NCBI GenBank assembly: GCA_002421665.1
Contig: DISH01000005.1
Coordinates: 14,092 to 78,091, forward strand
Reading direction: 5' to 3'
Length of the DNA: 64,000 nucleotides
DNA from: Candidatus Omnitrophica bacterium UBA6215
GTDB lineage: Bacteria; Omnitrophota; Gorgyraeia; Pluralincolimonadales; Pluralincolimonadaceae
The first letter of the stretch is position 1, and each line of letters starts with the position of its first letter. Both the position numbers and the translations under genes were made by a program. Shown here piece after piece: positions 3,469-52,498 of this stretch. Under the pieces are notes generated by a model. That model had not been told where the DNA came from. It saw only the letters and a list, made by a program, of their open reading frames with translations, and ran no database searches.

Positions 3469-3502
3469 AACCTTAACTTAAAGCAGGACAAGGAGAAATA
3501 AT

Positions 3503-4802: not shown

Positions 4803-4805
4803 CAG

Positions 4806-7113: not shown

Positions 7114-7143
7114 ATAATACCATAAAATAGCAATTTATTTCTC

Positions 7144-7172: not shown

Positions 7173-7307
7173 ATAGTGGTTCATAAACACGTGTCGAAAA
7201 CTGCATGGGCAACTTCTGAATTACAAGCTCATTTAACCGGTTAACGAAAAAGTTTATTGTTCTTGAATAATAAACACGTTTCGAAAAATGGGAGCCAAGA
7301 AAGAACC

Positions 7308-7943: not shown

Positions 7944-7954
7944 GAAAGAGAAAG

Positions 7955-8581
7955 ATGGGAAAGTTAATAGCTGTAGTGTGTTTGTCTGTGTTATTGGTCC
8001 CTGGTGTTGCCAGCGCTAACTTGTTGGTCAACGGTGATTTTGAGGTGTCTGTTGACGGCGATTACTCGTATGGTTGGGAGAACAATGACGCAACCCAGGA
8101 CGCCTGGAATCCCGACAATCAGGTCGCTACGACCGATAACCCGCAGAGCGGGAGCCGTGCACTTCATAACTACAACGATGGTGGTATGTCGCAGACGGTT
8201 GCCGTTACGGCCGGTCAGACGTACAGACTTACGGGTTACGCTTGGGTTCCCGCCGGGACGGTTGCCAACGGTTGGGGTTCATACATCGGCGTCAAGTTCC
8301 TTAGGTCAAACGGTACGGTGTCGAAGAAATACACGGTTGACATGAAGGCCTTGACCAGGAATCAGTATAATCTCGGAGATACGGGTGATATAGCTGCTCC
8401 GGATGATGCTGTTTCTGCGAGGATCATGTTCGGTACGTACGCGAACGATCCGTATGAGGTACCTGGCGAAAGCGATTATGACAACTTCAACTTTGATGTC
8501 GCAGCTGTTCCCGAGCCTGCCAGCTTATTGCTTCTCGGCTCAGGATTGATCGGTTTGGTTGGTTTTTCAAGAAAGAAGTAA
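7955..8581 (+). CDS. PEP-CTERM sorting-signal protein with N-terminal CBM4_9/galactose-binding-like domain (paralog)
   Basis: Signal peptide MGKLIAVVCLSVLLVPGVASA, then ANLLVNGDFEVS...YGWEN. C-terminus AAVPEPASLLLLGSGLIGLVGFSRKK. An alternative GTG start at 7940 is possible. Confidence 0.85.
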   Translation: MGKLIAVVCLSVLLVPGVASANLLVNGDFEVSVDGDYSYGWENNDATQDAWNPDNQVATTDNPQSGSRALHNYNDGGMSQTVAVTAGQTYRLTGYAWVPAGTVANGWGSYIGVKFLRSNGTVSKKYTVDMKALTRNQYNLGDTGDIAAPDDAVSARIMFGTYANDPYEVPGESDYDNFNFDVAAVPEPASLLLLGSGLIGLVGFSRKK

Positions 8582-8609
8582 GCAAGTCAGTTTAGAAGTA
8601 GGAGGACGA

Positions 8610-8660
8610 AAAGGGCTTCCAACCTTCCGCTCCAGGAATTGGAAGCCCTTTTTCTATTTT
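8610..8660 (+). terminator. rho-independent terminator after the PEP-CTERM pair
   Basis: 13-bp stem AAAGGGCTTCCAA/TTGGAAGCCCTTT (8610-8622 / 8639-8651) followed by a T-tract TTTTCTATTTT. Confidence 0.6.
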
Positions 8661-8688
8661 ATACATTCCTCCGCCCGTTCTATAATCC

Positions 8689-8717
8689 TTGACTTAACAC
8701 CCTATAATCGCTATAAT
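8689..8717 (+). promoter_or_regulatory. sigma70-type promoter TTGACT-17-TATAAT driving tRNA-Val and the thrS-infC-rpmI-rplT-pheST cluster
   Basis: Consensus hexamers with 17-nt spacing, 15 nt upstream of the tRNA 5' end. Confidence 0.5.
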
Positions 8718-8732
8718 TTAGGTTCATTGCGT

Positions 8733-8809
8733 GGGCTTATAGCTCAGTTGGTTAGAGCGCTTCCTTGACATGGAAGAGGTCAGAGGTTCGAGTCCTCTTA
8801 GGCCCACCA
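8733..8809 (+). tRNA. tRNA-Val (anticodon GAC)
   Basis: Manual cloverleaf fold: acceptor GGGCTTA/TAGGCCC, D-arm AGCTCAGTTGGTTAGAGC, anticodon stem CTTCC/GGAAG with loop TTGACAT, T-arm GGTTCGAGTCC, 3' CCA encoded. Confidence 0.9.
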
Positions 8810-8826
8810 TTTTTCTATTTTTTACT

Positions 8827-10557
8827 ATGGAACTCGATACTTTAAGGCATTCGACCTCACATGTGATGGCCCAGGCCGTAAAAAGGCTGTTTCCGGGCGT
8901 AAAACTGGCTATAGGGCCGGCTATAGAGGACGGTTTTTATTATGATTTTGACTCTCCGCAGCCGTTTTCTGAGGAAGACTTGCCCAAGATAGAAGCCGAG
9001 ATGGCCAGGATCATAAAGGAGAACCAAAAGTTCGAAAGGTCCGAGCTCGGCAAAGTTGAGGCCGTAAAGCTCTTTGAAAAGATGGGAGAGTCCTATAAGG
9101 TTGAGCTTATTAAGGATATCCCCGATGAAAAAGTATCATTGTATAAGAGCGGGGATTTTACGGACCTGTGCAAGGGTCCGCACATAGCTTCTACTGGCCA
9201 GATAAAGGCCTTCAAGCTGCTCTCCGCTACCGGCGCATATTGGCGCGGAAGCGAAAAGAATAAAATGCTGCAACGCATTTACGGCACGGCTTTTGCGACG
9301 AAAGAAGAGCTGGAGAATTACCTTAAGGCCAAGGAAGAGGCGGAAAAACGCGACCATAATAAGGTCGGCAGGATATTGGAGATCTTTACCACTCACGAAG
9401 CCGTGGGGCAAGGCCTCCCGCTCATAATGCCGAAGGGCGCCAAGATAATCCAGATACTCCAGAGGTTTGTGGAAGATGAGGAGGAGAAGAGAGGGTATCT
9501 TCTCACCAAGACGCCTTATATGGCAAAGAGCGACCTTTACAAGATATCCGGGCACTGGGATCACTACAGGGAAGGGATGTTCATAATTAACAGTAAGGAC
9601 GAAGAGATCCTTGCCTTAAGGCCCATGACATGCCCGTTCCAGTTCATGATATATAAATCCAAGACCAGGAGCTACAAGGACCTGCCCCTTAAGTACTGCG
9701 AAAATGCGGTCCTTTTCAGGAACGAAAGCTCAGGGGAGATGCACGGGCTTACCCGCGTCAGGCAGTTTACCCTGGCCGACGCGCATATCATATGCCTTCC
9801 GGAGCAACTGGAAGAAGAGTTCAAGAAGGTTCTGGACCTGATCAAGTTCGTAATGAAGACCCTTGGCATAGAGAACGAGATATGGTACAGGTTCTCAAAG
9901 TGGGACCCGGACAACAAAGAGAAATATATAGATGACCCCAAGGCCTGGGAAGAGTCACAGAAGATAATGAAGAAGATCCTCGACGATATCAAGCTTGACT
10001 ATAAAGAGGCGGACGGGGAAGCCGCTTTCTATGGGCCTAAACTTGATATTCAGTTCAAGAACGTTTACGGCAAGGAAGACACGATCTTTACCGTGCAGGT
10101 GGATTTTGCGCTGCCGGGAAGGTTCGGGATGGAATATGTAGATAAGGACGGGTCGCTAAAGACCCCGATGGTAATACACAGGTCTTCTATAGGCTGCTAC
10201 GAAAGGACCCTTGCGCTGTTGATAGAGCACTATGCCGGGGCTTTTCCGGTCTGGCTTTCTCCGGTGCAAACTGTTATAATACCGATATCCGATGAGCATA
10301 TGGCTTATGCCGAAAAAGTTGCTCAAACCCTTCGAGACAGGGACATAAGGGTAGAGATAAACGACAAAAGCGGCAGGATGCAGCATAAGATAAGGGACGC
10401 CGAGGTCCAGAAGGTGCCCTATATGCTGATAGTGGGCGCGAAAGAAGCCCAGGCGGAGAGCGTATCCGTAAGGGAGAGGAGCAAGGGAGACCTTGGTCCC
10501 ATGAAACTTGCGGATTTTGCGGACAAGATAGTCACGGAAGTAAAAGAGAAAAAATAG
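8827..10557 (+). CDS. thrS: threonyl-tRNA synthetase lacking the N-terminal TGS (N1) domain
   Basis: Starts at the N2/editing domain (HSTSHVMAQA...LAIGPAIEDGFYYDFD). Class II core and C-terminal anticodon-binding domain present. The track ORF 8770 start runs through the tRNA and is rejected. No SD before the ATG at 8827. Confidence 0.85.
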   Translation: MELDTLRHSTSHVMAQAVKRLFPGVKLAIGPAIEDGFYYDFDSPQPFSEEDLPKIEAEMARIIKENQKFERSELGKVEAVKLFEKMGESYKVELIKDIPDEKVSLYKSGDFTDLCKGPHIASTGQIKAFKLLSATGAYWRGSEKNKMLQRIYGTAFATKEELENYLKAKEEAEKRDHNKVGRILEIFTTHEAVGQGLPLIMPKGAKIIQILQRFVEDEEEKRGYLLTKTPYMAKSDLYKISGHWDHYREGMFIINSKDEEILALRPMTCPFQFMIYKSKTRSYKDLPLKYCENAVLFRNESSGEMHGLTRVRQFTLADAHIICLPEQLEEEFKKVLDLIKFVMKTLGIENEIWYRFSKWDPDNKEKYIDDPKAWEESQKIMKKILDDIKLDYKEADGEAAFYGPKLDIQFKNVYGKEDTIFTVQVDFALPGRFGMEYVDKDGSLKTPMVIHRSSIGCYERTLALLIEHYAGAFPVWLSPVQTVIIPISDEHMAYAEKVAQTLRDRDIRVEINDKSGRMQHKIRDAEVQKVPYMLIVGAKEAQAESVSVRERSKGDLGPMKLADFADKIVTEVKEKK

Positions 10558-27764: not shown

Positions 27765-29075
27765 ATGGTCAAAGTGAGATTTGCCCCGTCTCCGACGGGA
27801 TTTTTGCATATAGGGAGCGCGCGCACCGCTTTATTTAACTGGCTGTTTGCCAGGCATGAAGGCGGTATTTTTGTATTCAGGATAGAAGATACCGACAAAG
27901 AACGCTCGAAAGACGAATTTCTCCAGGAAATAATCAGCTCGATGAAATGGCTCGGGATGGATTGGGACGAAGGGCCATATTACCAGACCAAGAGGATCGA
28001 TGTATACCGGGATTACGCCGGCAGATTATTAAAGGAAGGCAAGGCCTACGAGGCCGAAGGTACGCTCGGCGGGCAGAAGGCCGTAATATTGTCGATGCCG
28101 AAAGAGACGATGGTGATGGACGACATCGTGCATGGCAAGGTATCGTTCGATATGAACCTTCAGAAAGACCTCGTGCTTATAAAGTCCGACGGTTTTCCCG
28201 CTTATAACTTTGCCTGTGTTATCGACGACAATGATATGAAGATAACGCACGTCATAAGGGGCGACGACCATATCTCCAATACGCCTAAACAACTGGCAGT
28301 ATATAAGGCCCTGGGTATCGAGCCCCCGAAATTCGCGCATATTCCGCTGATACTGGGCACCGACCGGTCCCGCATGTCTAAGCGCCACGGTGCTACGTCA
28401 ATATCTGATTACAGGCAGATGGGGTTTCTCCCGGACGCCCTCGTTAATTATATATCACTTTTGGGCTGGGCACCCTCAGGAGACAGGGAGATACTGCCTA
28501 TTAAGGAGATAATAAAGGAATTCTCGCTTGAGAGGGTAGGTAAGACCGGAGCGGTATTTGATATAAACAAGCTCATATGGATGAACGGGGAATATATCAG
28601 GGCCAAAGGGCCGGAAGAACTTATGGGGATGGTCATGCCGGGCTTGAAAGAAAAAGGTATTATAAAGGGAGACCCCGATAAGGACAGGCTCCTGGATGTC
28701 GTAAAATTGTTCCATCCCAGGGCCAAGACTCTTGAAGAGCTTTCTAATTCGGCCGTTCCTTTCTTCACGGACGAAGTAGCATACGATGAGGCCGCAGTGG
28801 TCTCTGTTCTGGGAAAAGAAGGCGCCGGGAAAAAACTCGAAGCGGTGGTCGAGAGGTTTTCATCCATCCCTGTATTTGATACCCCGGGCCTGGAAAATTG
28901 CGTAAGAGACCTTGCCTCAGAATTGGGCATCAAGGCCGCCGATCTTATCCATCCGATAAGGGTTGCCGTTACCGGCAGCAAGGTAGGGGCCAGCCTGTTC
29001 GAGACGGTGGCGCTTGTCGGCAAGGAGAAAACCATAGAGCGGTTGAGATCGGCCATAGGGAAAGCAAAACCATGA
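27765..29075 (+). CDS. gltX: glutamyl-tRNA synthetase
   Basis: VRFAPSPTGFLHIGSARTALFNWLFAR (HIGH) and KMSKRHG (KMSKS). Confidence 0.9.
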   Translation: MVKVRFAPSPTGFLHIGSARTALFNWLFARHEGGIFVFRIEDTDKERSKDEFLQEIISSMKWLGMDWDEGPYYQTKRIDVYRDYAGRLLKEGKAYEAEGTLGGQKAVILSMPKETMVMDDIVHGKVSFDMNLQKDLVLIKSDGFPAYNFACVIDDNDMKITHVIRGDDHISNTPKQLAVYKALGIEPPKFAHIPLILGTDRSRMSKRHGATSISDYRQMGFLPDALVNYISLLGWAPSGDREILPIKEIIKEFSLERVGKTGAVFDINKLIWMNGEYIRAKGPEELMGMVMPGLKEKGIIKGDPDKDRLLDVVKLFHPRAKTLEELSNSAVPFFTDEVAYDEAAVVSVLGKEGAGKKLEAVVERFSSIPVFDTPGLENCVRDLASELGIKAADLIHPIRVAVTGSKVGASLFETVALVGKEKTIERLRSAIGKAKP

Positions 29076-29854
29076 AAAAGACCTTATTGTTGTGCCTGAT
29101 ATTGCTGTTGTACATTGCCGTATTGTCCGAATGCCGGGCTGATAAGATCTATTATATAGACGGCAGGATCGTTGACGAGCAGATAGCCGGCCGCAACAAG
29201 GACGTGATAAAGATACAAAGGTCTTCCGGTACGGTAAGCGTAAAGAGGGACCGCATAGACAGGATACTCAGTGATGACGGTTCGATATCAAAATATGATT
29301 ACGAAGGCATATGTAATGCCATTAGAGACAAGGTAAAGGAAGGCAATTATGCGGAAGCGGCTTCCCTGTCCGACCTGTTGCTGCAGTCATTTTCCAAGAG
29401 CGCAGAAGTTCATTACCTGAGCGCGGTCCTTAACCATAAAGCCGGCAACATTTCCAAGACCAAGGAAGATTATAATTTTGTGCTGGAGTCGGGAACCGTT
29501 GACGCGAAGATACTCAATAATCTCGGTGCAATATACGCGACAGACAGGGATAATGATAAGGCGATCGAGATGTTCAACCAGGCTATAGAAAAGGATCCCG
29601 GCTTGACCGAAGCGCATTTTAACCTGGCAGGACTTTTGCTGGAAAAGAAAGACTACCCCGCTGCGATAAACGAATACAACAAAGTAATAGAAAGGGAGCC
29701 CGATAATACGGAAGCCCTGTATAATCTGGGTGTCGCGTATTTTAACAGGAGAGATATATCGTCCGCGCGCAATAATTGGAAGAGGATCCTTTCCGTGGAC
29801 CCGGATAACAGAGAGGCCAAGGCTGCCTTGAATGCGCTTTCTTCAGGAAATTAG
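29072..29854 (+). CDS. secreted TPR-repeat protein
   Basis: Start MKKTLLLCLILLLYIAVLSEC overlaps the gltX stop (ATGA). TPR repeats (AHFNLAGLLLEKKDYPAAINEYNKVIEREPDNTEALYNLGVAY). The track ORF 28898 start is rejected. Confidence 0.75.
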   Translation: MKKTLLLCLILLLYIAVLSECRADKIYYIDGRIVDEQIAGRNKDVIKIQRSSGTVSVKRDRIDRILSDDGSISKYDYEGICNAIRDKVKEGNYAEAASLSDLLLQSFSKSAEVHYLSAVLNHKAGNISKTKEDYNFVLESGTVDAKILNNLGAIYATDRDNDKAIEMFNQAIEKDPGLTEAHFNLAGLLLEKKDYPAAINEYNKVIEREPDNTEALYNLGVAYFNRRDISSARNNWKRILSVDPDNREAKAALNALSSGN

Positions 29855-29920: not shown

Positions 29921-31135
29921 ATGAGCAGAAAAAAAGGGGTTACATTCGTAGAGATACTACTGGCGCTCACGGTCATCGCCGTGTTCTTCGGGCTCATCTT
30001 TGCTTTTTATAAGAACGCCATAAACAAGTCTAAATACGTTGAAGCAGTTGCGACGGTCTCCAACATAACAAAAGCAGAAGAGATGTACAAGATGGATACC
30101 GGCGAATACGTAGCGGCCGCTAATACGCAGGAGGTAAATGAACGCCTTGGCATGAACATAGAGCCAAGGTGGTTTAATTATAAGGTGGTAGGGGTAACTA
30201 ACGATAACTTCATAGTGCTTGCCGAGAGGATCCGCGATGACATAGAATCCGGCAATCTTGAAGGCGATGATGTCGTTATCGCGATGGATAATTCGGGGCC
30301 CGTTTCCCCGTCCGACATTAATCGGAACGAGCCTTCCCTTGATGATACTTCCGGCGAAGGAGGGCCTCCTCCCGGCAGTAACAGCCCGGGCGGGGGTAGT
30401 CCGGGCGCGGGCAGTCCGGGCGGAGGGGCTCCGGGAGGCGATTCCGGCACTCCAGGCAGCGGGGATTCCAGCCAGAGCAATCCCACCGGAGGCGGATCGG
30501 AAAAACATGATTACGAAGATACGGTAGATGTCCCGGATGATGTCATAGCATTACTCAGCGGGACCGTAAACGGCGATTATTTTTATAATCTAATAAATGA
30601 CAACGACATAAATGTAGTTTATTTTGATTTCAGCCGTCTTTACGGGGATTTCGTTTATCTATTTCCTCTTGCAATGTGGACAGGACTGGATGATCAGCCG
30701 TATTTCGATTACTTTAACAATGACAGCGATACCCTTTACAGCAATACAATATATGTTAACTACCTGCTTGAAGAGGATACGGATATTTTTGGTTCCGCTT
30801 ACAGCGATAAAGCGATAGCTTCGGTAGTGACCCATGAAGCCACTCATGCCGATTACAGTTACAATCCGGATTTCTGGATAAATGATGCAATAGTCAATCA
30901 CGGGCAATCTCCGGAAGATATACACATAACCCAAGATCCGTATGATTCGATAGATCAGGAATATAATGCGTTTAATAATGCCACGCTAGTCTGGGGCGAG
31001 ATAAAAGGGACGGAAACTAACGAAGAGCTTGACGGTTGGCTGGATATAGTTGGAAGCGAAATCGCCATGAAACAGGAAGTTCGCTCCCGTTACTCGAGCC
31101 TAAAGGATGAAGAGGGTAATTATATAGAATTTTGA
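29921..31135 (+). CDS. prepilin-type (class III signal peptide) protein fused to a Gly/Pro/Ser-rich linker and a C-terminal HExxH putative metallopeptidase domain
   Basis: MSRKKG|VTFVEILLALTVIAVFFGLIF, with Glu at +5 after the predicted prepilin peptidase site. Pilin-like N-terminal helix. Low-complexity GGPPPGSNSPGGGSPGAGSPGGGAPGG. C-terminal D/N/Y-rich domain with VVTHEATHADY (HExxH). Confidence 0.6.
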   Translation: MSRKKGVTFVEILLALTVIAVFFGLIFAFYKNAINKSKYVEAVATVSNITKAEEMYKMDTGEYVAAANTQEVNERLGMNIEPRWFNYKVVGVTNDNFIVLAERIRDDIESGNLEGDDVVIAMDNSGPVSPSDINRNEPSLDDTSGEGGPPPGSNSPGGGSPGAGSPGGGAPGGDSGTPGSGDSSQSNPTGGGSEKHDYEDTVDVPDDVIALLSGTVNGDYFYNLINDNDINVVYFDFSRLYGDFVYLFPLAMWTGLDDQPYFDYFNNDSDTLYSNTIYVNYLLEEDTDIFGSAYSDKAIASVVTHEATHADYSYNPDFWINDAIVNHGQSPEDIHITQDPYDSIDQEYNAFNNATLVWGEIKGTETNEELDGWLDIVGSEIAMKQEVRSRYSSLKDEEGNYIEF

Positions 31136-31153: not shown

Positions 31154-31750
31154 ATGGTATATAAGAGACGCCTGTTTTTGGCAATAGTCTCAGGAGCTGT
31201 TATGATAGGCCTTTTATCAGGTTGTTCCGGCGGTTTTAAATATGATAAATATGTTACTAAGGATCCAATGCTCGGATTGCGGGTCGAATATTTAAAAGGC
31301 TGGCTTCATGGTGAGTCGAGAGGATCTAAGGAAAGTTATGCGGAAGTTTTTTTTGGTGAGCCGCCAAAAGATAAGTCGGCCAGTTTTAAGCCTTTTATGA
31401 GCATTGTCGCCAGGAACGCTTCTTCTGTAGGGATTGCAAAAAAAGACCTTTCGGGCGTAGCTGATGCCGTGATATCGGATAATATAAAGATACATCGCGC
31501 TTCAGAAATACCGGGCTCGAAAACAGCGATCAAGCTTCCCGCGGGAGACGCCATAGAGTCAACCTTCAATTTTGATACTTTCGACAGGATATATACGGTA
31601 GGGAATAAAAAGATAAAGGTGACCGAAAAGCAGGTAGTCCTCTTGAAGGGCTCTAAGGTATATATATTAAGCTACAGGAATAAACAGGAAGATTTTGATA
31701 AGTATTCCAAGGCTTTCAGGCATTTTGTTAAATCCGTCAGGTTCCAGTAA
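31154..31750 (+). CDS. lipoprotein, unknown function
   Basis: Lipobox LLSGCSGG. 198 aa. AT-rich gene like the 3' half of the preceding gene. Confidence 0.5.
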   Translation: MVYKRRLFLAIVSGAVMIGLLSGCSGGFKYDKYVTKDPMLGLRVEYLKGWLHGESRGSKESYAEVFFGEPPKDKSASFKPFMSIVARNASSVGIAKKDLSGVADAVISDNIKIHRASEIPGSKTAIKLPAGDAIESTFNFDTFDRIYTVGNKKIKVTEKQVVLLKGSKVYILSYRNKQEDFDKYSKAFRHFVKSVRFQ

Positions 31751-43704: not shown

Positions 43705-46119
43705 ATGATCAAGAGCATAGCGTTAACCATGTCTGTATTTGTTTTGGCGGCCTTTATATCCCCTGCAGAGGCGGGCATAGTCTCAATAACGGCGGACCGG
43801 GAAGAAGTGCCGGAATTCGGGAAATTGGAAATTACGGTCGGGCTTGACATTGTTTTTTCCAATCCGTTCGACCCGGAAGAAGTGGATCTGTCGGCGGTAT
43901 TTACGGGTCCTGCGGGCAGGTCATATATGGTTCCGGGTTTCCTGTATTCGGCGCAACAGGATTCATCCATGAGTTATATTAACCCCGTCTGGAAGATCAG
44001 GTTCTCTCCATGCTGTAAGGGAACTTGGAAGTATGAGGTGCGCGTGAGGACGAAAGACGGCGCGGAAAATTCCGAGGGGAAAAACTTTGAATGTGTACCG
44101 TCAAAAGCGAAGGGATTCATAAGGGTGAGCGCAGCGGATCCCCGCTATTTCGAATTTACCAACGGGGATTTCTATTATCCTGTCGGCGAGAACATATGCT
44201 GGGCATCTCTGCCCGGTTTCAGGAAATATTTCGCCGGAATGCAGAAGGCCGGGTGTAATTGGACGAGGGTATGGATGTCGAACTGGGAATCGGGATTGGA
44301 GTGGACCAAGGGCTCCGGATACAGGGGACTTGGCAGGTATAATCTCGAGAAAGCAGATAAATTGGATAAGATAATAGAGCTTGCGCAGGAACACGGCCTG
44401 TACGTGCAGCTTGTGATCAACCACCACGGCCAGTTAAGTACCAGGGTAAACCCGCAATGGGATGATAACCCCTATAATGCCGGGAACGGCGGCCCATGCA
44501 AAGAACCCAAGGATTTTTTTACCGATCCCTTGGCAAAAAAACATTTCAAGAACAGGATGCGCTATATCGTGGCACGCTGGGGATACAGCCCTAATCTAAT
44601 GGCATGGGAATTATGGAATGAATTGACATTCATCGATGACCTTGACCTCGAAAGGGACGCAGCTTGGCACAAGGAAATGGCCTCGTATATCAAGGAGACC
44701 GACCCTTACAAACACTTGATAACCACGAGTTACGCCGGGACCTTTCACGATTACGGTTTTAACGAAAAAGTCTGGGAGATACCCGAGATAGATTATACGC
44801 AATTCCATATGTATACGCAGGATGTCGTCTCGGCTATAATAGGCGCCTACAGGCTTATGAGCCGGTTCGACAAACCGTATTTCATGGCGGAGATAGGTAC
44901 GGATTCGACCGAGGGCGTAGACAAGAAAGACCTCGACGGCGCTTACCTCCATGCGGCTATCTGGTCGGAATATATGCTTTCCTGCGCAGGCAACGCGATG
45001 CCTTGGTGGTGGGACAGCTACGTGCATCCGAGGGGTATGTATTACCATTGGGCGGCGCTTACGGCTTTTAACCGGGGGACCGACAGGAGGGGCAAGGGAT
45101 ATTGCACGTCGACATCACGCGTGCTTGCAGAGATCGAAGGGTTGAAGACGTCCGTGTCCGCAGTAGGCATGATGAACGACAGGGAAGCTTTTATATGGGT
45201 CTTCGACCCGAAATGGACCAGGTTTGAACCGGGCCATCCGGAGCCTCCGGAGATAAAGGATGCATCGGTGAGGATAAACGGTATGGCCGGAGGAAGATAT
45301 CTGATAGAATTCTGGGATACGTTGTCCGGGGCAGTAACGGGAAAAGTGGAAAAGGGTTCCGATGAGAACGGGCTGGACATAACCATCCCTCCTTTCAGAA
45401 GAGATATCGCGGTTAAAGTAATACCCGTTGAGGTCAAGTCTTCCGGCCGCAGGAAGGCAGCCCTGGCAGATACTGTTCCCGCACCTATCGGTTTTTCCAG
45501 GCAGTCTGTAACGGCCGGGAGGGCGAGACAGCATATAAAAGTAGATGGCGACCTTTCGGAATGGTATCTGTCCGGTTTTGCCGGCGACCGGATAGCCTCG
45601 GCGGATAAAGGTGCTGCCAGGTTCTACCTTTTATATGACAAAGACAACCTTTATCTGGCCGCTGAGGTCGAGGATGAGTCCGTTATAGGCAACCAGAGCG
45701 GCGTTGACATTTGGCGTGATGACGCGATAGAGTTCTGGATAGACGCCCGGGGGGACGCGGATACATTCAATAACATGCCTTTCAACCCGGGTTGCTACCA
45801 GGTGAATATCGCGCCTATTACAAAAGACGGGACCGCGGGTGTCTATGTTTACAGGAATATCAATACGAGGTCTCTCGCGGAAGCGGTCAAAGCCGCCTCA
45901 AAAGTATCGTCCGACCCTAAGAAACCGGGCTATACCATAGAAGCGGCTATACCGATACGCTCAGTTGACGGACTTGAATTGAAGGACGGCAAGACCCTCG
46001 GAGTGAATTTTTCCGTTACCGACAGGGACACGGAAAAAGGACAATGGCGTCACGTCATATGGTCGGGGCAACGGGAGGATGACGCCACGCAATGGGGCAT
46101 ATTGAAGGTAAAAAACTAA
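43705..46119 (+). CDS. secreted glycoside hydrolase: N-terminal beta-sandwich (DUF5060-like) + GH-A clan TIM barrel (DUF4038/GH5-like) + C-terminal CBM9-like domain
   Basis: Signal peptide. WELWNELT (putative NE acid/base), W-rich TIM-barrel motifs. C-terminal ~190 aa DGDLSEWY...RFYLLYDKDNLYLAAEVEDESV...WRDDAIEFWID resembles the CBM9/DOMON-like fold. Paralog of the central region of 53394..56267. Confidence 0.65.
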   Translation: MIKSIALTMSVFVLAAFISPAEAGIVSITADREEVPEFGKLEITVGLDIVFSNPFDPEEVDLSAVFTGPAGRSYMVPGFLYSAQQDSSMSYINPVWKIRFSPCCKGTWKYEVRVRTKDGAENSEGKNFECVPSKAKGFIRVSAADPRYFEFTNGDFYYPVGENICWASLPGFRKYFAGMQKAGCNWTRVWMSNWESGLEWTKGSGYRGLGRYNLEKADKLDKIIELAQEHGLYVQLVINHHGQLSTRVNPQWDDNPYNAGNGGPCKEPKDFFTDPLAKKHFKNRMRYIVARWGYSPNLMAWELWNELTFIDDLDLERDAAWHKEMASYIKETDPYKHLITTSYAGTFHDYGFNEKVWEIPEIDYTQFHMYTQDVVSAIIGAYRLMSRFDKPYFMAEIGTDSTEGVDKKDLDGAYLHAAIWSEYMLSCAGNAMPWWWDSYVHPRGMYYHWAALTAFNRGTDRRGKGYCTSTSRVLAEIEGLKTSVSAVGMMNDREAFIWVFDPKWTRFEPGHPEPPEIKDASVRINGMAGGRYLIEFWDTLSGAVTGKVEKGSDENGLDITIPPFRRDIAVKVIPVEVKSSGRRKAALADTVPAPIGFSRQSVTAGRARQHIKVDGDLSEWYLSGFAGDRIASADKGAARFYLLYDKDNLYLAAEVEDESVIGNQSGVDIWRDDAIEFWIDARGDADTFNNMPFNPGCYQVNIAPITKDGTAGVYVYRNINTRSLAEAVKAASKVSSDPKKPGYTIEAAIPIRSVDGLELKDGKTLGVNFSVTDRDTEKGQWRHVIWSGQREDDATQWGILKVKN

Positions 46120-46136
46120 AAAGACAAAAGGAAAAA

Positions 46137-48182
46137 ATGAAGAAAAAAGCGGAAATAAAGGAAGGCATATTCTATCTCGGAGGAAAACCAACGTTCCTTG
46201 TAAGCGCGGATTACCCTTATTATCGCGATGATGCCGCGAACTGGAACGACAGGTTAAAGAAGATAAAAGATGCCGGGATCGATGCCGTTACGTTCTATAC
46301 TCCCTGGAGGCACCATGTTCTAAGGGACGGAGAAGGTTTCATCGAGGATTTCAACGGCAAGACGCGCCCGAACCGCAACGTTGAACTGTTCCTTAAATTA
46401 TGCCGTGACAACGGCCTTTGGGCTATAGTAAAACCCGGGCCTTTTATACATGCAGAGTTGACGTTCGGAGGTCTTCCGGATTGGGCTGCCGCCGAAAAAA
46501 GCTCCGGCCTGGAGACCTTCCCGAACAACAAGGGCGAGCCTATGCTCGACCCGTTCCGTAAACCAGACACATACGGCAGGCCCATGCCCGCCCCTCTTTG
46601 TAAAAAATTCAGGTCGATGACCAGGCAGTGGTACAAGACCGTATATGACAAAGTGATAAAAGGCAATATATATCCGGAAGGCAATATAATAGCGGTTCAG
46701 GTCTGCAACGAGGGGCTCTATTCCAACGGGCCTGCCTCGATAACCGATTATGATTATTCGGACTCATCGCTTGAACTATTCAGGAAATTCACCGGACGAA
46801 AGGACCTGAAGGTAGCAAGGAGGCTCTACGGGATAAAGAGGCTTTCCGACCTCAAGGACTACCTTGATTGGGCCAGATGGCAGTCGGAGTATATGAGGTT
46901 AATATATACGGAATTCTCCGCGGTCGTCCACGGCAAACTACCTATCGTAATAAATATCAATCCTCCGTGCGAGGGCAGGAAGCTTGACCATTGGCTGACC
47001 AGGGTAATACCGGAGAACTGGCCTACGATAAACTACGGTTTTACGAACTGGCTGCGGCCCGTTTCCGAGGACCGTTCATCCTTTGATCGTTACAGCCTTT
47101 TATCCAAGCGCAAAAGAGGCATAAATTTCGAGGAGAACTGGGGATTTTCCAAGATATACGATTACCATTTCCAGTATCCCGTGATCTGCGTATTCGAGAC
47201 CATGCTGGCGATAGCAAACGGAGCGACCGGCTTCAATGTCTATACCGCAGTCAATACCGCCTCATGGGATGATTCCATAGACAGCCAGCATGAAAGACCG
47301 TATCCGGATTCTTCTCCCATAAAAGAAGACGGTTCGCTGACCAAAAAGTACGAAGTATTAAGCCTTATATCGCATTTCTTTGAGACCGAGGGCCCCGCCT
47401 TCCTTAAATGTTCCGCAGATACGCCTATAGCGTGGGGCTTTTATCCGCCCTATGCGTTCCTGGCGGCGTGGGACATACCTAAGGAAGACTGGGACAGGCT
47501 TCACATGGACCCGGTAAGGTGCGGTTATGAAGGGTTGGACAAGTTCCAAAGGGTACTTAGGGACCGGAACATCGATTTCCATATAGTCAATCTTGAGACC
47601 GCCAGCCTAAAGGAATTGAAGCAGAATAAATTCATAGTCCTTAACGGCGGTTTCTTCATGGACAGGAAGACCCAACAGAAACTTGCCTCTTTTGCGGCGG
47701 GAGGCGGAAAGGTTATATTCATAGGAGAGACGCCCCGCGCGGATGAAAATTTCAATGACTGCAGGATATCACAGAAAAACAGTTTCTGTTTGCTTAAGAT
47801 AGAGGATATAGGCGGAATATTGGCGCGTTATCATTCAAAGCTTAAGGTTAACGACCCCGAGACCCAGGTATGGGCTTATGACGATCCCGCTTCCGATACG
47901 CAGTTTTTCTTTATCCTTAACCTGTCGATAAACGCGGGTGCCCGATACTTCGATTATGACGGCGTAAATGGGAGTGTTGTAATGCCGGATAAATCCGCGG
48001 CTGTGATCAAGGTCAAGAAGGGCAAGCTTGATTCACTGTTTATAAAAGGCATCAACGAGATGAACAATACGTCAGTGGTCCCGGCGGCCTCGTTCGGCAG
48101 GGATGTTTTCAGGTCGGAGAAGGCATGTGACGTCCTGGCTTACAGGAAGGCGAATAAATGGCAGGCAAAAATCGTATTATAA
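46137..48182 (+). CDS. GH35/GH42-like beta-galactosidase family protein (cytoplasmic)
   Basis: GH35 N-terminal pattern: YPYYR...W.DRLKKIKDAGIDAVTFY.PW..H, then AIVKPGPFIHAELTFGGLPDW and VQVCNEGLY (compare VQVENEYG, acid/base Glu). No signal peptide. Start set to ATG 46137 after the upstream stop. Confidence 0.65.
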   Translation: MKKKAEIKEGIFYLGGKPTFLVSADYPYYRDDAANWNDRLKKIKDAGIDAVTFYTPWRHHVLRDGEGFIEDFNGKTRPNRNVELFLKLCRDNGLWAIVKPGPFIHAELTFGGLPDWAAAEKSSGLETFPNNKGEPMLDPFRKPDTYGRPMPAPLCKKFRSMTRQWYKTVYDKVIKGNIYPEGNIIAVQVCNEGLYSNGPASITDYDYSDSSLELFRKFTGRKDLKVARRLYGIKRLSDLKDYLDWARWQSEYMRLIYTEFSAVVHGKLPIVININPPCEGRKLDHWLTRVIPENWPTINYGFTNWLRPVSEDRSSFDRYSLLSKRKRGINFEENWGFSKIYDYHFQYPVICVFETMLAIANGATGFNVYTAVNTASWDDSIDSQHERPYPDSSPIKEDGSLTKKYEVLSLISHFFETEGPAFLKCSADTPIAWGFYPPYAFLAAWDIPKEDWDRLHMDPVRCGYEGLDKFQRVLRDRNIDFHIVNLETASLKELKQNKFIVLNGGFFMDRKTQQKLASFAAGGGKVIFIGETPRADENFNDCRISQKNSFCLLKIEDIGGILARYHSKLKVNDPETQVWAYDDPASDTQFFFILNLSINAGARYFDYDGVNGSVVMPDKSAAVIKVKKGKLDSLFIKGINEMNNTSVVPAASFGRDVFRSEKACDVLAYRKANKWQAKIVL

Positions 48183-49693
48183 AAGCGGTCCTTATCGCAG
48201 CGATCCCGGCCCTATTATCACAGGCCCGGGCCGATGAAGGGAGACTCGTTTACCTTAACCCTTTTACGGTAGCGGCTTCGTCTTTTGATGACAGTGAGTG
48301 GGCGCCGGAACCCGAGCCTTCGGCCGTATCCGACGGCGATTTCAACACTCGCTGGTCATCCGTCATGGGCAAGGATAACGAATGGATATACCTTGACTTC
48401 GGTAAGCAGAAGACCGTTACGGAAGTTATTATATACTGGGAACGTGCTTATGCTACGGAGTTCGAGATACAGTCATCCGATGACGCAATGAACTGGAAGA
48501 CCATCGCCCGGGTGAAAAACGGAAAGGGCGAGAAAGAGACGGTTTCAGTCCCCAAGACGACTGCGCAATACCTCAGGCTGGTCGGCTTAAAGAGGGTCAA
48601 CCCCGACTGGGGGTTCTCGGTCTGGGAGTTCGAGGCGTACGGTCCGCCAGAGCTCAATCCCCAGGACTTTCCGGTCGAGGAGGTGTTCCCCGGCAGGAGG
48701 CCGCGAGAAGAGGTCAAGCTTGTTATGGAGGAACCGGTGAGGTCACCCGGGGCCATCGGGCCCGGGGAGTTCCAAAAAGGCGTCAATTATTCGTCTTATA
48801 ATGAGGTGGACCTTGCCCTGCAGGAATCCGATGAAATACTGGCTTATCTCAAGACGATGAACGTGACGGATGTATGCATTATCGTGACGTGGTACCAGGA
48901 CAGCCTGGAGTCGATGTCCATGTCGCCTGATGCCGTCGGAGGAAGGACCCCGCGCGACGAAGCGCTCATCCATGCTATAAATAAGGCGCATTCCCTGGGT
49001 TTCAAAGTTATGTTAAAGCCTCATATAGACATACAATCCGGCGAGTTTCGCGGGGATATCCCCGGCGAGGAAGAATGGTTCGGGAATTACGGAGATTTCA
49101 TATTGAAATATGCAGGCATCGCGCAAAAATTCAATGTCGAACTCTTCTGTATCGGGACCGAGCTTTCCGGCACTCCTACAAAATGGGAACCAAACTGGAG
49201 GAAGATCATAAAGGATATACGCGCCGTATACTCCGGGCCGATAACCTACGCCGCGAACTGGGACGAATACAAATATGTCCCTTTCTGGAACGACCTGGAT
49301 TATATGGGCATAGACGCCTATTTCCCCCTTACCAACAAGAATGAGCCTTCGAAAGAAGAACTCCTTGTTGCCTGGAAACGGGAGGCAGATAATATAGAAA
49401 ATTTTTTGAAGAAGAAAGGCATAAACAAACCGGTCATCTTTACCGAAGCCGGTTATGCCAGTTCGGACGGCGCCAACAAGAGGCCGTGGGAAGTCACATC
49501 TAAGACCGAAGACCAGAGGGAGCAAGCGGACTGTCTGGATGCGCTTATGACGGTCATGACAAATCGGGTGTGGTTTTCGGGACTTTACGTGTGGAATGTA
49601 TTCCCCCAGGATATCTCCAGCCCGCTTGGTTTCCCGGTTAAGGGGAAATTGGCTGAAAAGATACTTGCCGACTGGTATGCGAAGCTGAAGTAA
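48158..49693 (+). CDS. secreted F5/8 type C (discoidin, CBM32-like) domain + GH-A clan TIM-barrel glycoside hydrolase
   Basis: Signal peptide. Discoidin signature FNTRWSS...EWIYLDFG...VWEFEAYG. C-terminal TIM barrel with FTEAGY (nucleophile-like TE) and WNDLDYMGIDAYFP. Paralog of 50372..51553. Confidence 0.65.
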   Translation: MAGKNRIIKAVLIAAIPALLSQARADEGRLVYLNPFTVAASSFDDSEWAPEPEPSAVSDGDFNTRWSSVMGKDNEWIYLDFGKQKTVTEVIIYWERAYATEFEIQSSDDAMNWKTIARVKNGKGEKETVSVPKTTAQYLRLVGLKRVNPDWGFSVWEFEAYGPPELNPQDFPVEEVFPGRRPREEVKLVMEEPVRSPGAIGPGEFQKGVNYSSYNEVDLALQESDEILAYLKTMNVTDVCIIVTWYQDSLESMSMSPDAVGGRTPRDEALIHAINKAHSLGFKVMLKPHIDIQSGEFRGDIPGEEEWFGNYGDFILKYAGIAQKFNVELFCIGTELSGTPTKWEPNWRKIIKDIRAVYSGPITYAANWDEYKYVPFWNDLDYMGIDAYFPLTNKNEPSKEELLVAWKREADNIENFLKKKGINKPVIFTEAGYASSDGANKRPWEVTSKTEDQREQADCLDALMTVMTNRVWFSGLYVWNVFPQDISSPLGFPVKGKLAEKILADWYAKLK

Positions 49694-49718
49694 AGGTACG
49701 GGAAAGGAGGCAGTAACG

Positions 49719-50303
49719 ATGGGCAGGTTAATGGCAGCAGCATTGCTGGTCGCGTCACTTCTTGCGTTGAGCAGTGTCCCTCACGCGGCTGAAACGGTGC
49801 TCTTCGGGTTCGAGGATGACACCGGGGGTTGGCGCGTCCCTGATTGGGCGCTTGAAAAAGAAGACCATGTAGCGAGGGACCTCTCCCTCTCTACCGATTG
49901 GGCTTCCGAAGGGAAGAAGTCCATGAAGGTCACTTCCGAGTTCCTCGGGGGCAAATGGTCGGGCGCGTATGTCGAGATAGAAGAATATTTCGACTGGTCG
50001 CCTTACAGCAAGCTTTTGGTCGATGTGTACATACCAAAAGATGCCCCGGCCGGGCTTAAAGGTAAGATAATCCTTACCGTAGGTGATGAGTGGAAATGGA
50101 CCGAGATGAGCAAGACCGTGCCGCTTACCCCGGGCCAAGTCACCACGATAACGGCCGATATAGCCCCGGGAAGCAAGGATTGGAAGAACACGATCGTCGA
50201 TGATAACTTCAGGAAAGATGTCCGGAAATTCGGTGTAAGGGCGGAAAACAACAGGACCGAGTGGAAGGGCGCCTATTATGTCGACAACATAAGGTTGGAA
50301 TAA
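49719..50303 (+). CDS. small secreted protein consisting of one uncharacterised CBM-like module (copy 3)
   Basis: Signal peptide. LFGFEDDTGGW, KSMK, KDWKN, YYVDNIRLE. Confidence 0.65.
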   Translation: MGRLMAAALLVASLLALSSVPHAAETVLFGFEDDTGGWRVPDWALEKEDHVARDLSLSTDWASEGKKSMKVTSEFLGGKWSGAYVEIEEYFDWSPYSKLLVDVYIPKDAPAGLKGKIILTVGDEWKWTEMSKTVPLTPGQVTTITADIAPGSKDWKNTIVDDNFRKDVRKFGVRAENNRTEWKGAYYVDNIRLE

Positions 50304-50313
50304 TGGCTGTTAC

Positions 50314-50351
50314 GCGGGGCCGCAAAAACCGGCCCCGCGCGACACCTTTTA
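50314..50351 (+). terminator. rho-independent terminator
   Basis: Perfect 9-bp GC stem GCGGGGCCG-CAAAAAC-CGGCCCCGC (50314-50338) followed by TTTTAT. Confidence 0.65.
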
Positions 50352-50371
50352 TAAGTCTTAAGGAGAGCAAG

Positions 50372-51553
50372 ATGTTTTTCAGGAGAAAGTTATTAATATT
50401 CATTCTGGTAGCAGCCGCGTTCCTGGCCGGCTACCTGGCCAGCGTAATGGCCCCGCGCGTGTCCTCGCAGAAGCCGGTCGAGACCAAGTTTGCTTTTGGC
50501 GCGGGAAAGAAGGTGTCCGGAGCTCCTCAGGAAGCAGCCGGTCCCTCAAGGGAGCAGGCCCCTGCGGCCGCGGCCCAGAAAAAAGTAGACAGGCCCCCTT
50601 TCCCTCAATTCCAGAAAGGGATGACCTATGTGACATGGGACAGGTCCGCGTACGGCAAAGGTTTTTCAGACATGTCCCTGGAAAAACTCGCCTCGATAGG
50701 CTGTGGTTATGTTGCCATAATAACCACCTGGTACCAGGGTGATTATAATATTACCCAGATAAAGCGGGGAGGCAGCACGCCTACCGATGAAAGCCTGATA
50801 CATGCAATAGAGTCGGCGCATAAAGCGGGCTTAAAGGTCATGCTTAAGCCGCACCTTGACCTTGTAAAAGGCGGCTGTTGGAGGGGGGAGATACAATTTG
50901 GCAACGATACCGATTGGGAAACATGGTTTGCCAGCTACGGGGATTTCATAACTCACTACGCTAAACTTGCGGAAGATAACGGTGTAGAGATATTCTGTAT
51001 CGGAGTGGAGCTTACGGTGCCCGCGGTAGAGAAGCCGGATATGTGGGTAACGAAAGTCATAGAGCCCGTGAGGAAAGTTTTTTCAGGCCCGATAACTTAT
51101 GCAGCGAACTGGAACGAGGAATACCAGAACGTTGAATTCTGGGATAAGCTCGATTATGCAGGTTTGGACGCCTATTTTCCTCTTTCTGATAAAGAAGACC
51201 CGTCGCTCGATGACTTGAGGCAGGGATGGAAACCCCATATGGAAGCTATCGAAACCTGGCAGAAGTTCATAAATAAGCCGGTCCTGCTTACCGAGGTAGG
51301 TTATAAGAGTTCAACGGGCACGGCCAGGACCCCGTGGGAGCACCAGCTCGGCAGGGAAGTGGATCTGAAACTGCAAAGCGATTGCTACACGGCTATGTTG
51401 GAAGCTTTTTGGGATAAACCCTGGTTTTATGGGATGTACTGGTGGTATTGGGGGACGAATGATAGAATGGGAGGCAGCACCGACCGCGGGTTCAATGTGC
51501 AGAACAAACCTGCGCAGGCCGTGGTCAGGGATTGGTACGCCAAAGGGCGCTAA
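50372..51553 (+). CDS. membrane-anchored/secreted GH-A clan TIM-barrel glycoside hydrolase (paralog of the 48158 catalytic domain)
   Basis: AGGAGA RBS before ATG 50372. N-terminal signal anchor. LLTEVGY, WDKLDYAGLDAYFP and YAANWNEEY motifs shared with the 48158 protein. The track ORF start 50261 is rejected. Confidence 0.65.
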   Translation: MFFRRKLLIFILVAAAFLAGYLASVMAPRVSSQKPVETKFAFGAGKKVSGAPQEAAGPSREQAPAAAAQKKVDRPPFPQFQKGMTYVTWDRSAYGKGFSDMSLEKLASIGCGYVAIITTWYQGDYNITQIKRGGSTPTDESLIHAIESAHKAGLKVMLKPHLDLVKGGCWRGEIQFGNDTDWETWFASYGDFITHYAKLAEDNGVEIFCIGVELTVPAVEKPDMWVTKVIEPVRKVFSGPITYAANWNEEYQNVEFWDKLDYAGLDAYFPLSDKEDPSLDDLRQGWKPHMEAIETWQKFINKPVLLTEVGYKSSTGTARTPWEHQLGREVDLKLQSDCYTAMLEAFWDKPWFYGMYWWYWGTNDRMGGSTDRGFNVQNKPAQAVVRDWYAKGR

Positions 51554-51568
51554 AAACAGGAGGATAAT

Positions 51569-52498
51569 ATGAGGTTTGTCTGCAAGAAATACGAAAAGAA
51601 CCCGATAATAACAAAAGAAGATATGCCTTACCCGTGCGAATGCGTATATAACGCGGGTGCGGCAAAGTACAAGAATAAATATATACTCTTGCTCAGGGTT
51701 CTTCTGCTTAACGGTAACTGCGTATTCGGGCTCGCCGAGAGCGATGACGGTTTCGATTTCAGGATCCACCCGAAACCGGTTATGGTCCCGGCGACTACAG
51801 GGCCTTTCGCCAGGTATGAGGAGAAGGGCATCGAAGACCCGCGTATCACCAAGATCGGGGACACCTATTATATCTTCTACAGCTGCTATTCAGGGCTCGG
51901 GATGAGGATAGGGCTCGCCAAGACCAAGGACTTCAGGAAATTCGACCGTATCGCCATGACGACCACCATAGATTATCGCAATTCGGTCCTGTTCCCGGAG
52001 AAGATCAACGGCAAATATTGCCGTTTCGAGCGCCCGAACGTGGGACGCCAGGGGATATGGGTCTCTTACTCTCCGGACCTGATACATTGGGGCGAGCAGG
52101 AGCATATAATGGCCCCTTACGGCAACCATATTTGGGAAGACCATAAGATCGGCGCCGGCGCTCCGCCTATCAAGACCAAGAAGGGCTGGCTGAGTATCTA
52201 CCACGGCGTTACCTGGACGATGGACGGAATGACTTACAGGCTTGGAGCAGCTATGCATGACCTGAAGAACCCGGCAAAGATCCTCGGGATAGCCGACCAA
52301 TTCATACTCAGCCCCGATGAGATCTTTGAAAGGGTGGGGTATGTCCATAACGTCGTTTTTACCTGCGGCGCAATACCCGAACCTGACGGGACGGTCAAGA
52401 TATATTACGGCGGTGCCGATACGGTAATGTGCGTTGCCGTTGCAAAAATAGAAGACCTTATAGATATAGCGCTTAAAGGCAAGAGGAAACCGCTATAA
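51569..52498 (+). CDS. GH130-family glycoside phosphorylase (beta-1,4-mannoside phosphorylase-like)
   Basis: 309 aa, no signal peptide. NPIITKEDMP...VYNAGAAKYKNKYILLLRV N-terminus and VVFTCGAIPEPDGTVKIYYGGADTVMCVAVAKIEDL C-terminus are characteristic of the five-bladed beta-propeller GH130 family. Confidence 0.75.
   Translation: MRFVCKKYEKNPIITKEDMPYPCECVYNAGAAKYKNKYILLLRVLLLNGNCVFGLAESDDGFDFRIHPKPVMVPATTGPFARYEEKGIEDPRITKIGDTYYIFYSCYSGLGMRIGLAKTKDFRKFDRIAMTTTIDYRNSVLFPEKINGKYCRFERPNVGRQGIWVSYSPDLIHWGEQEHIMAPYGNHIWEDHKIGAGAPPIKTKKGWLSIYHGVTWTMDGMTYRLGAAMHDLKNPAKILGIADQFILSPDEIFERVGYVHNVVFTCGAIPEPDGTVKIYYGGADTVMCVAVAKIEDLIDIALKGKRKPL

Follow-up and report, generated by a model that had tools for sequence, protein, structure and literature searches.

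In a 64,000-nucleotide stretch of contig DISH01000005.1 from Candidatus Omnitrophica bacterium UBA6215 (contig positions 14,092 to 78,091, referred to below as the window) there is a gene for a type IV pilin-like protein whose C-terminal part contains an HExxH motif (Table 1). On balance, and with some reserve, we consider that this protein is probably a modular pilin carrying a zinc-metallopeptidase effector, and that the lipoprotein encoded by the next gene is its cognate inhibitor or immunity protein. The evidence consists of the three-part architecture of the protein, the invariance of the motif among homologues, the obligate pairing and co-variation of the domain with the lipoprotein, the hypervariability of the cassette that the two form together, and the presence of the same pair in type VII secretion system (T7SS) loci of Chloroflexi. 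Homologous proteins and their loci are cited below by our P and L numbers.

A type IV pilin module linked to an HExxH domain

A sequence-only reading of this region had proposed one open reading frame (ORF) with a pilin N-terminus, a linker and an HExxH domain, and the same three parts were recovered here. A copy of the 404-residue protein with 100% identity (P0001) is present on 12–16 public contigs. A word search returned 45 homologues of 330–559 amino acids, nearly all of them from metagenome-assembled genomes of Candidatus Omnitrophota, and the fusion of the pilin with the HExxH domain is retained in essentially all of the Omnitrophota homologues.

Table 1. Coordinates of the gene, its parts and the adjacent genes in the window
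Feature	Position	Strand	Remarks
Whole gene, putative modular type IV pilin with C-terminal HExxH domain	29921-31135	+	ATG start; 404 amino acids plus stop
Pilin module, residues 1-135	29921-30325	+	Leader MSRKKG, predicted prepilin-peptidase site after G6, E11 at +5, hydrophobic alpha1N, beta-sheet head
Gly/Pro/Ser linker, predicted disordered, residues 136-195	30326-30505	+	Boundary between conserved and hypervariable parts
C-terminal zincin-like HExxH domain, residues 196-404	30506-31132	+	DUF6782-related, without Pfam annotation
HEATH motif (H305-E306-A-T-H309)	30833-30847	+	Invariant in homologue alignments
E347, candidate third zinc ligand	30959-30961	+	In conserved DSIDQEYNAF, at the start of helix 344-361
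Putative cognate partner gene, 198-residue lipoprotein, PsbP/LpqN/DcrB-like	31154-31750	+	Lipobox LLSGC; proposed inhibitor/immunity protein
TPR (tetratricopeptide repeat) protein, 260 residues	29072-29854	+	N-terminal signal-like hydrophobic segment; strong TPR Pfam matches

The leader MSRKKG is followed, after the predicted cut, by VTFVEILLALTVIAVFFGLIFAFY (beginning VTFVE), and the hydrophobic tract covers residues 7–30. The Glu at +5, E11, is invariant in an alignment of 38 homologues and, together with the leader and the hydrophobic tract, it bears out the class III signal that had been read from the sequence. The Pfam family N_methyl (PF07963) is present in the precomputed annotation of 14 of the 45 homologues, and the GspG model gives a partial match to residues 5–66. 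An AlphaFold2 (AF2) model generated from the family alignment contains a 55-residue alpha1 helix (residues 6–60) and strands between residues 85 and 128, with a predicted local distance difference test (pLDDT) score above 90; the predicted alpha1 helix and beta-sheet head give the module the lollipop fold of type IV pilins. A Foldseek search with this module identified PilA4 (6xxd), PilE (4noa) and PilV (5v23) with a probability of 1.00 but weak E-values of 0.04–0.08.

In the AF2 model two confidently predicted domains are separated by a disordered linker, which is the arrangement typical of a modular pilin in the sense of Raynaud et al. 2021. The linker, at residues ~136–195, is rich in Gly, Pro and Ser as the earlier reading had described, has a GC content of 0.68, and is predicted to be disordered over residues 138–194 (pLDDT below 50). 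The homologous gene of L023 is divided into two overlapping ORFs (5926–6741 and 6708–7079), which could be the result of a frameshift, a pseudogene or an assembly error.

A C-terminal domain with sequence affinities to zincins

The sequence VTHEATHADY comprises residues 303–312 and lies on a predicted helix formed by residues 296–314. The 38-homologue alignment has a mean column identity of 28%, yet H305, E306, H309, E347 and W358 do not vary in it, and conservation is 90% or higher for N275, T276, D311, Q346, Y348 and D371. The HEATH motif is invariant too in a separate alignment of 29 domain sequences, the mean column identity being 28–29% across both alignments. The HExxH motif picked out by the sequence-only reading is therefore not a chance motif, since H305, E306 and H309 do not vary. 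That reading left a third zinc ligand to be found downstream, and the invariant E347, 38 residues beyond the motif, is a candidate for it. The domain modelled on its own has a pLDDT of 94 and a predicted template modelling score of 0.91, and the predicted topology, a beta-sheet with the HExxH helix and a further helix at residues 344–361, is consistent with a gluzincin in which E347 would be the third ligand.

A domain-only profile searched against 1.84 billion cluster representatives matched 270 proteins at E ≤ 1e-3, of which 68 reach E ≤ 1e-30. HExxH is intact in ~95% of the 167 representatives that were scored, and a QE[YF] motif is found in a similar share. Distant relatives retrieved with this profile, P0140 (32.9 bits) and P0134 (28.4 bits), score above the DUF6782 gathering threshold of 27 bits, and P0183 is named by NCBI as a DUF6782 ‘putative metallopeptidase family’ protein. 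Neither the window protein nor any of the 29 domain sequences matched DUF6782 in Pfam, and we regard the HExxH domain, from its sequence relatives, as related to DUF6782 and not as a member under the current model. DUF6782 is itself uncharacterised, and no paper on it was found in a literature search. Weak SprT-like matches were obtained for 13 of the 29 domain sequences and weak Peptidase_M48 matches for 10, while a few touch M91, DUF2268, PhageMetallopep or eCIS_core.

The profile also aligned with selecase MJ1213, a minigluzincin (PDB 4qhf–4qhj), with E = 6e-4 over the strand NTIYIN and the HExxH helix. This core, in which the strand is followed ~15 residues on by the HExxH helix, is shared with the minigluzincins, M48, M56 and DUF6782. 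Unlike selecase, which has 110 amino acids, the domain described here has ~200 amino acids with extra N- and C-terminal elements. In the selecase structures the third ligand is reportedly a His seven residues after the motif; there is no such His in the present domain, which has instead the invariant Glu 38 residues downstream. As the sequence affinities of the domain are to zincin families only, it can be described as a zincin-like family without Pfam annotation. This agrees with the metallopeptidase type suggested by the sequence-only reading, and the assignment of a peptidase at the level of fold is indirect.

Variants of the domain were observed in two relatives with tandem copies, P0116 (759 amino acids) and P0123 (276 amino acids). 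The first copy contains HQGEH in P0116 and HEGEH in P0123, the second lacks HExxH in both proteins, and in P0116 the copies are joined to a lipase/alpha-beta-hydrolase domain. Most family members, including the Chloroflexi toxins described below, end in a conserved ...LPEY-COOH; the window allele (C-terminus at 31111–31132) and P0002 end in ...YIEF instead (alignment A1, columns 800–829).

A lipoprotein that varies with the HExxH domain

The gene that runs to 31750 was correctly read as a lipoprotein gene, the product having the lipobox LLSGC. GTDB species representatives were scanned, giving 30 loci that are essentially all from Omnitrophota, and hidden Markov models (HMMs) of the domain and of the lipoprotein were used to establish how often their genes are neighbours. 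Of the 35 HExxH-domain genes with readable downstream DNA, 33 have a gene of the lipoprotein family directly after them; the two L029 copies and the Flp-type fusions of L039 and L040 are among the 33. In 20 loci the identity of the lipoprotein correlates with that of the HExxH domain when the pilin module is controlled for (partial Mantel r = 0.47, p = 0.0002), and the corresponding value for the pilin module with the domain controlled for is r = 0.07 (p = 0.22); pairwise-identity correlations of this kind are not phylogenetically independent, and the Mantel procedure removes this incompletely. The adjacency and the Mantel correlation give the HExxH domain what is expected of a polymorphic toxin, a co-varying cognate gene immediately downstream.

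The lipoprotein family has a weak but recurrent signature of PsbP, PsbP_2, LpqN and DcrB, with PsbP matched in 12 of 22 members, which points to a binding fold of the Mog1/PsbP type and not to an enzyme. A PDB sequence search with the lipoprotein profile returned nothing meaningful as a solved relative.

Two groups of loci show variations in this part of the locus. In L005 (11180–11923) and L012 (1764–2507) there is a 247-residue protein with a lipobox-like LGAC, and the HExxH domain at these loci is typical. The L029 genome has two pilin–HExxH genes (3025–5054 and 7204–8940), and a separate PsbP-like lipoprotein gene accompanies each of them. In the first of these copies (474 amino acids, P0133) an extra domain of ~100 residues is inserted after the linker and before the HExxH domain, an insertion also present in P0124.

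A hypervariable cassette behind a conserved module

When the homologues are compared with the window protein, their identities in the pilin module and in the HExxH domain show no correlation (rho = -0.15), and P0004, P0008, P0020 and P0022 retain ~80% identity in the former and 25–35% in the latter. The syntenic loci L007 and L009 allow the flanking genes to be included in the comparison. The upstream flank has identities of 83% for dxs, 87–91% for the POR subunits, 80% for GltX and 69–73% for the TPR protein, and the downstream flank 82–86% for RND, 70–72% for MFP and 85–87% for OEP. Between these flanks the pilin module is 77–79% identical, compared to 39–42% for the HExxH domain and 30% for the lipoprotein. 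Identity to close relatives calculated in blocks is 87–100% over most of residues 16–105, with 53–67% in block 46–60; it falls over residues 106–135, and beyond the linker it is 10–50% except in the block containing HExxH. The protein thus shows the conserved N-terminal module and far more divergent C-terminal domain that characterise polymorphic toxins, with the break at the linker.

The sequence-only reading had noted that the 3' half of the gene and the following gene are AT-rich. This is real and reaches synonymous sites, as the GC content of third codon positions (GC3) is 0.41 in the HExxH domain and 0.44 in the lipoprotein gene, compared with 0.57 in the pilin module, 0.58 in the TPR gene and a baseline of 0.60 +/- 0.05 for 42 long ORFs of the window. 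The fall of 0.13–0.16 coincides exactly with the domain and the lipoprotein gene. A smaller GC3 dip is seen in 21 of 26 loci. The reading attributed the difference to domain acquisition, and a recent fusion is not tenable because the fusion is phylum-wide; what does stand is the compositional break, which marks the hypervariable cassette of HExxH domain and lipoprotein.

Comparison with the closest relative, L006, gave ratios of nonsynonymous to synonymous substitution (dN/dS, omega) of 0.025 for the pilin module, 0.13 for the HExxH domain and 0.16 for the lipoprotein. All parts are therefore under purifying selection against L006, and positive selection between this closest pair is rejected (omega 0.13–0.16 in the cassette). 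As the synonymous divergence (dS) between the window and L006 is also uniform across the locus, the cassette can be taken to be functional and fast-evolving, with no recent transfer demonstrated. Recent horizontal transfer is in the same way unsupported as the cause of the low GC3, dS being similar in all segments and the smaller dip being so common among the loci.

The same pair in type VII secretion loci

The HExxH domain is found on three kinds of type IV filament subunit, namely T4a-like pilins (83 representatives), proteins with Flp/Tad-like leaders and a GspG pseudopilin, P0165 (T2SSG, E = 3e-11). Many of the domain proteins that are not T4a-like have leaders of the Flp/Tad type (G/xxxxEY, cut after the G), and others have signal peptides.

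A further carrier is found in a Chloroflexi/Anaerolineae group (P0140 and relatives), where the domain lies behind a helical N-domain of ~175 amino acids that has no match to Pfam LXG. A search with P0140 revealed that this N-domain (residues 1–175) recurs at 41–62% identity with different C-termini, which include Tox-GHH with the GHH signature (P0255, P0258), Endonuclea_NS_2 (P0253), ParB-like nucleases (P0239, P0244) and other unrelated ones. Alternating C-termini on a shared N-domain, as recognised here by sequence matches, are the hallmark of a polymorphic toxin family. The Chloroflexi toxin genes are positioned directly after WXG100 genes and an FtsK/SpoIIIE ATPase is encoded near one of them, and their context is therefore type VII secretion.

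In the two Chloroflexi loci with HExxH variants (L036 and L037) the toxin gene is followed by one for a protein of 205–207 amino acids that scores 52.9 and 39.5 bits against the Omnitrophota lipoprotein HMM (E = 1e-17 and 2e-13). In L038, which has the Tox-GHH variant, the gene in this position encodes a YbjN-like protein that is unrelated. The domain and the PsbP-like protein therefore travel together and, to judge from these profile matches, the HExxH domain with its specific partner is used in two phyla, on delivery modules that are unrelated to each other. In the T7SS loci the partner lacks a signal peptide, and in the loci where the pilin is Sec-exported it is a lipoprotein. This is the location expected of an inhibitor that would meet the domain within the producing cell, in the cytoplasm for T7SS and in the periplasm for the pilin loci. 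A role for the partner as a trafficking chaperone is unlikely, as in both phyla its presence goes with the C-terminal domain and not with the N-terminal module.

The Chloroflexi loci contain two other small genes. A 71-residue protein with the motif WNDPVRW.FE.EFW is encoded after the gene in the immunity position in all three loci, whichever toxin type is present (L036 5615–5830, L037 5622–5837, L038 3393–3608), and in L036 a 92-residue protein is encoded between WXG100 and the toxin. Both are probably T7SS accessory or chaperone proteins.

Proposed mechanism and alternatives

The steps proposed here are drawn from what is established about type IV pilins and about polymorphic toxins. Sec would insert the prepilin into the inner membrane, where prepilin peptidase would cut the leader MSRKKG after G6. 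The pilin module would then join a type IV filament as a low-abundance subunit, most likely at or near the tip, a placement that has been argued for modular pilins (PMC8179133), and the flexible linker of ~55 residues would hold the HExxH domain off the filament. There it may cut a target, protein or peptide, that is located on the envelope of another cell or within it. Before assembly the catalytic domain would be in the periplasm of the producer, where the PsbP-like lipoprotein would bind it and keep it inactive; as an immunity protein, the lipoprotein would protect sibling cells too. The HExxH domain and the lipoprotein gene would evolve, and probably be exchanged, as one cassette behind a conserved pilin module, and polymorphic toxins with their immunity proteins diversify on the same principle, as a cassette attached to a carrier that is conserved. 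Claims about function go beyond architecture, conservation and comparative genomics, and it is from the sequences that we infer zinc binding, proteolysis, incorporation into a filament, the inhibitory role of the lipoprotein, the toxic effect and the nature of the target. A wider proposal, to which we give somewhat less than even weight, is that type IV filaments are a hitherto unrecognised delivery route for polymorphic toxins, with a pilin for trafficking in Omnitrophota and in the Flp-type and GspG-type fusions, a DUF6782-like metallopeptidase toxin and a PsbP-fold immunity lipoprotein, the toxin and immunity pair having been recruited independently by T7SS in Chloroflexi.

Several observations weigh against a pilin-borne effector with its own immunity protein. 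In most homologues residue -1 is Ala and not Gly, and the window protein scores just under the cut-offs of both N_methyl (PF07963; 19.3 against 21.2 bits) and TIGR02532 (14.4 against 16.3 bits). No pilus or type II secretion system assembly genes and no prepilin peptidase were found in the window or within 10 kb at any locus examined, and the gene is situated amid housekeeping genes in conserved synteny. A Pfam search of ~37 further ORFs of the 64-kb window detected no PilB/C/D/M-Q or Tad/Gsp assembly proteins, a GspK-like ORF aside, and a regex scan for pilin leaders in the window found only the one described here. The HExxH domain had no significant Foldseek neighbour in the PDB or BFVD, the best being Zmp1 with E = 1. 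In the L005/L012 clade, the only exception to the pairing, an unrelated lipoprotein replaces the PsbP-like partner, which does not fit a strict one-family immunity model. Among the homologues found, no unrelated toxin domain was seen on the Omnitrophota pilin, which always carries the HExxH family; alternation with nucleases was observed only on the Chloroflexi T7SS-type N-domain and not on the pilin. Orphan cassettes were not seen. The difference in GC3 between the domain and the pilin module is slight in most loci (mean -0.04), and the uniform dS and the incomplete independence of the Mantel data, both given above, count on the same side.

A pilus-displayed enzyme used in adhesion, in remodelling of prey or host surfaces or in feeding, and not as a toxin, is in our view unlikely but deserves the most attention. 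The lipoprotein would then be a self-protective periplasmic inhibitor or a chaperone, and the hypervariability an adaptation to differing host or prey surfaces. Such a role would be in keeping with modular pilins in general, which usually bear ligand-binding or enzymatic modules (PMC8179133), with the tips of the Myxococcus Kil pilus, which expose variable prey-recognition domains (PMC12075869), with the epibiotic or predatory lifestyles proposed for Omnitrophota (PMC10066038), and with the confinement of the variation to one domain family. A purely adhesive or feeding role does not, however, predict that the same pair should occupy toxin and immunity slots of T7SS loci in alternation with nucleases. 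This explanation overlaps strongly with the effector proposed here and differs from it mainly in the effect that cleavage would have on the target cell.

We consider it improbable that the protein is a housekeeping envelope protease that never enters a filament. The pilin-like N-terminus would in that case be an inner-membrane anchor, the linker would give an M48-like domain reach to its substrates, and the TPR protein and lipoprotein would be regulators or adaptors, as in BepA or NlpI-Prc. BepA, an M48 peptidase with TPR, and NlpI-Prc are housekeeping envelope protease systems, and like the present locus they combine a metallopeptidase with a TPR protein and a lipoprotein in the periplasm; the resemblance comes down to generic TPR and weak M48 matches, and unlike the locus described here they have no pilin anchors or hypervariable partner cassettes. 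The gene is single-copy, is in conserved synteny with gltX, POR and dxs, has no pilus genes nearby and has a conserved TPR neighbour; the purifying selection on all of its parts and the M48 matches in 10 of the 29 members would suit such a protease too. A protease and its regulator should nevertheless diverge with their flanks, and here the domain and lipoprotein have 30–42% identity against 70–91% for the flanks. The TPR protein follows the pilin module and not the catalytic domain, the domain also serves as the C-terminus of T7SS toxins, and its independent fusions to T4a-like, Flp-like and GspG-like subunits point to filaments and not to a generic anchor.

That the HExxH domain is a pseudo-peptidase, which would bind without catalysis and keep the motif for structural reasons, is very improbable: the lack of a significant Foldseek match to a solved peptidase, the failure of the window protein to match any curated peptidase family in Pfam or NCBIfam at threshold, and the few relatives in which the motif is degenerate (such as P0116 with HQGEH and P0063 with HDAVH) are outweighed by the invariance of H, E, H and the downstream E at a mean column identity of only 28–29%, and by retention of the general-base Glu, which pseudo-enzymes typically lose, in ~95% of representatives.

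Relation to known systems

Both modular pilins and polymorphic toxins are familiar classes. Among the modular type IV pilins are two of Streptococcus sanguinis, PilB, which bears a vWA module, and PilC, which bears a lectin module, and an InterPro survey listed 264 modular-pilin architectures in which the peptidase modules S74 and M26 were predicted in silico (PMC8179133). The judgement of the sequence-only reading that this is not a standard pilin architecture thus holds in so far as the architecture is unusual, but modular pilins are established and peptidase-bearing ones had already been predicted. The protein of the window differs from these in that its module belongs to an unannotated zincin family, invisible to a survey based on InterPro, and in that it has an obligate co-varying lipoprotein and a hypervariable cassette between conserved flanks. 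We know of no modular pilin described with an immunity-like partner.

With polymorphic toxins such as those of the WXG100/T7SS type, with LXG-like helical N-domains, the locus shares a conserved N-terminal trafficking module with a divergent C-terminal effector, a co-varying downstream cognate gene and a change of base composition where the C-terminal domain and partner are encoded; in the T7SS loci of Chloroflexi this HExxH domain and its PsbP-like partner are also themselves present. It is unlike them in that the trafficking module is a type IV pilin and in that only one effector family is found on the Omnitrophota pilin. To our knowledge the type IV pilin is not among the known delivery modes of polymorphic toxins, and no paper on pilin-borne polymorphic toxins was found in our literature searches.

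The closest experimental analogue of filament-borne antagonism is the Kil (Tad-like) pilus of Myxococcus xanthus, in which interchangeable minor-pilin Tips expose variable domains during contact-dependent antagonism; for Tip4 the authors of that study suggest either association with a toxin or a toxic activity of its own (PMC12075869). Both cases would involve a type IV filament in contact-dependent antagonism. The Kil Tips differ in being complexes of several pilins, whose genes accompany those of the machinery or are close to them; neither a catalytic motif nor an immunity partner has been described for the Tips, and they have no sequence relationship to the HExxH family. The combination of a pilin-borne zincin effector, an obligate co-varying PsbP-like partner, a hypervariable cassette and a pair held in common with T7SS toxins appears to be undescribed, and literature searches found no paper on it.

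If the proposed role is correct, type IV pilins would be added to the carriers of polymorphic toxins, and the pilus would be a contact-dependent weapon of putatively predatory or epibiotic ultra-small bacteria. The protein would also be a testable candidate for a role of pili beyond adhesion in contact-dependent antagonism or predation, a question that concerns the Myxococcus Kil pilus, the Bdellovibrio Tad pilus and the uncultivated Omnitrophota. The DUF6782-related family, with at least 270 clusters at 50% identity, would gain a proposed role, and the PsbP-like fold would provide a candidate family of proteinaceous inhibitors for DUF6782-related peptidases, together with natural cognate and non-cognate enzyme–inhibitor pairs for studies of specificity.

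Genomic neighbourhood

Type IVa pilus genes have been reported as near-universal, or present in most genomes, in Omnitrophota, a phylum for which predation or parasitism has been proposed (PMC10066038); both points favour the pilus-borne effector. A TPR-type protein of ~250–290 amino acids is encoded upstream of the pilin gene in most loci. Its divergence follows the pilin module and not the HExxH domain (Spearman 0.64 against 0.37), and it was therefore rejected as a member of the variable cassette. Matches of the TPR protein to PilW, Tgl and NlpI in NCBIfam are generic TPR matches below the cut-off. Upstream of the TPR gene are the housekeeping genes dxs, 2-oxoacid:ferredoxin oxidoreductase and gltX, and downstream of the lipoprotein gene is a convergent RND efflux operon.

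The gltX and TPR genes are separate in the window, with an overlap of a few bases (27765–29075 and 29072–29854). They form a single ORF of 689–690 amino acids in L004 (7881–9953), L008 (1367–3436) and L010/L011 (3859–5928), which could mean either that a cytoplasmic tRNA synthetase is truly fused to a TPR protein bearing a signal, or that there is an internal start.

Elsewhere in the window, exosortase (EpsH) and DUF3485 genes followed by two PEP-CTERM proteins occupy 5648–8581. Two more PEP-CTERM proteins, with mannanase galactose-binding-like domains, are encoded at 56463–57778, and their genes adjoin GH113, GH130, GH5 and GH35 genes at 43705–52498. At the end of this mannan-utilisation/PEP-CTERM cluster is the GspK-like ORF of 792 amino acids (57830–60208, + strand). 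It has a GspK-type N-terminus, RRRGGVALILTVGVLALIAL, a T2SSK score of 27.1 bits against a threshold of 24.2 bits and a ConA-like lectin (Laminin_G_3) domain, and may be a second modular pseudopilin.

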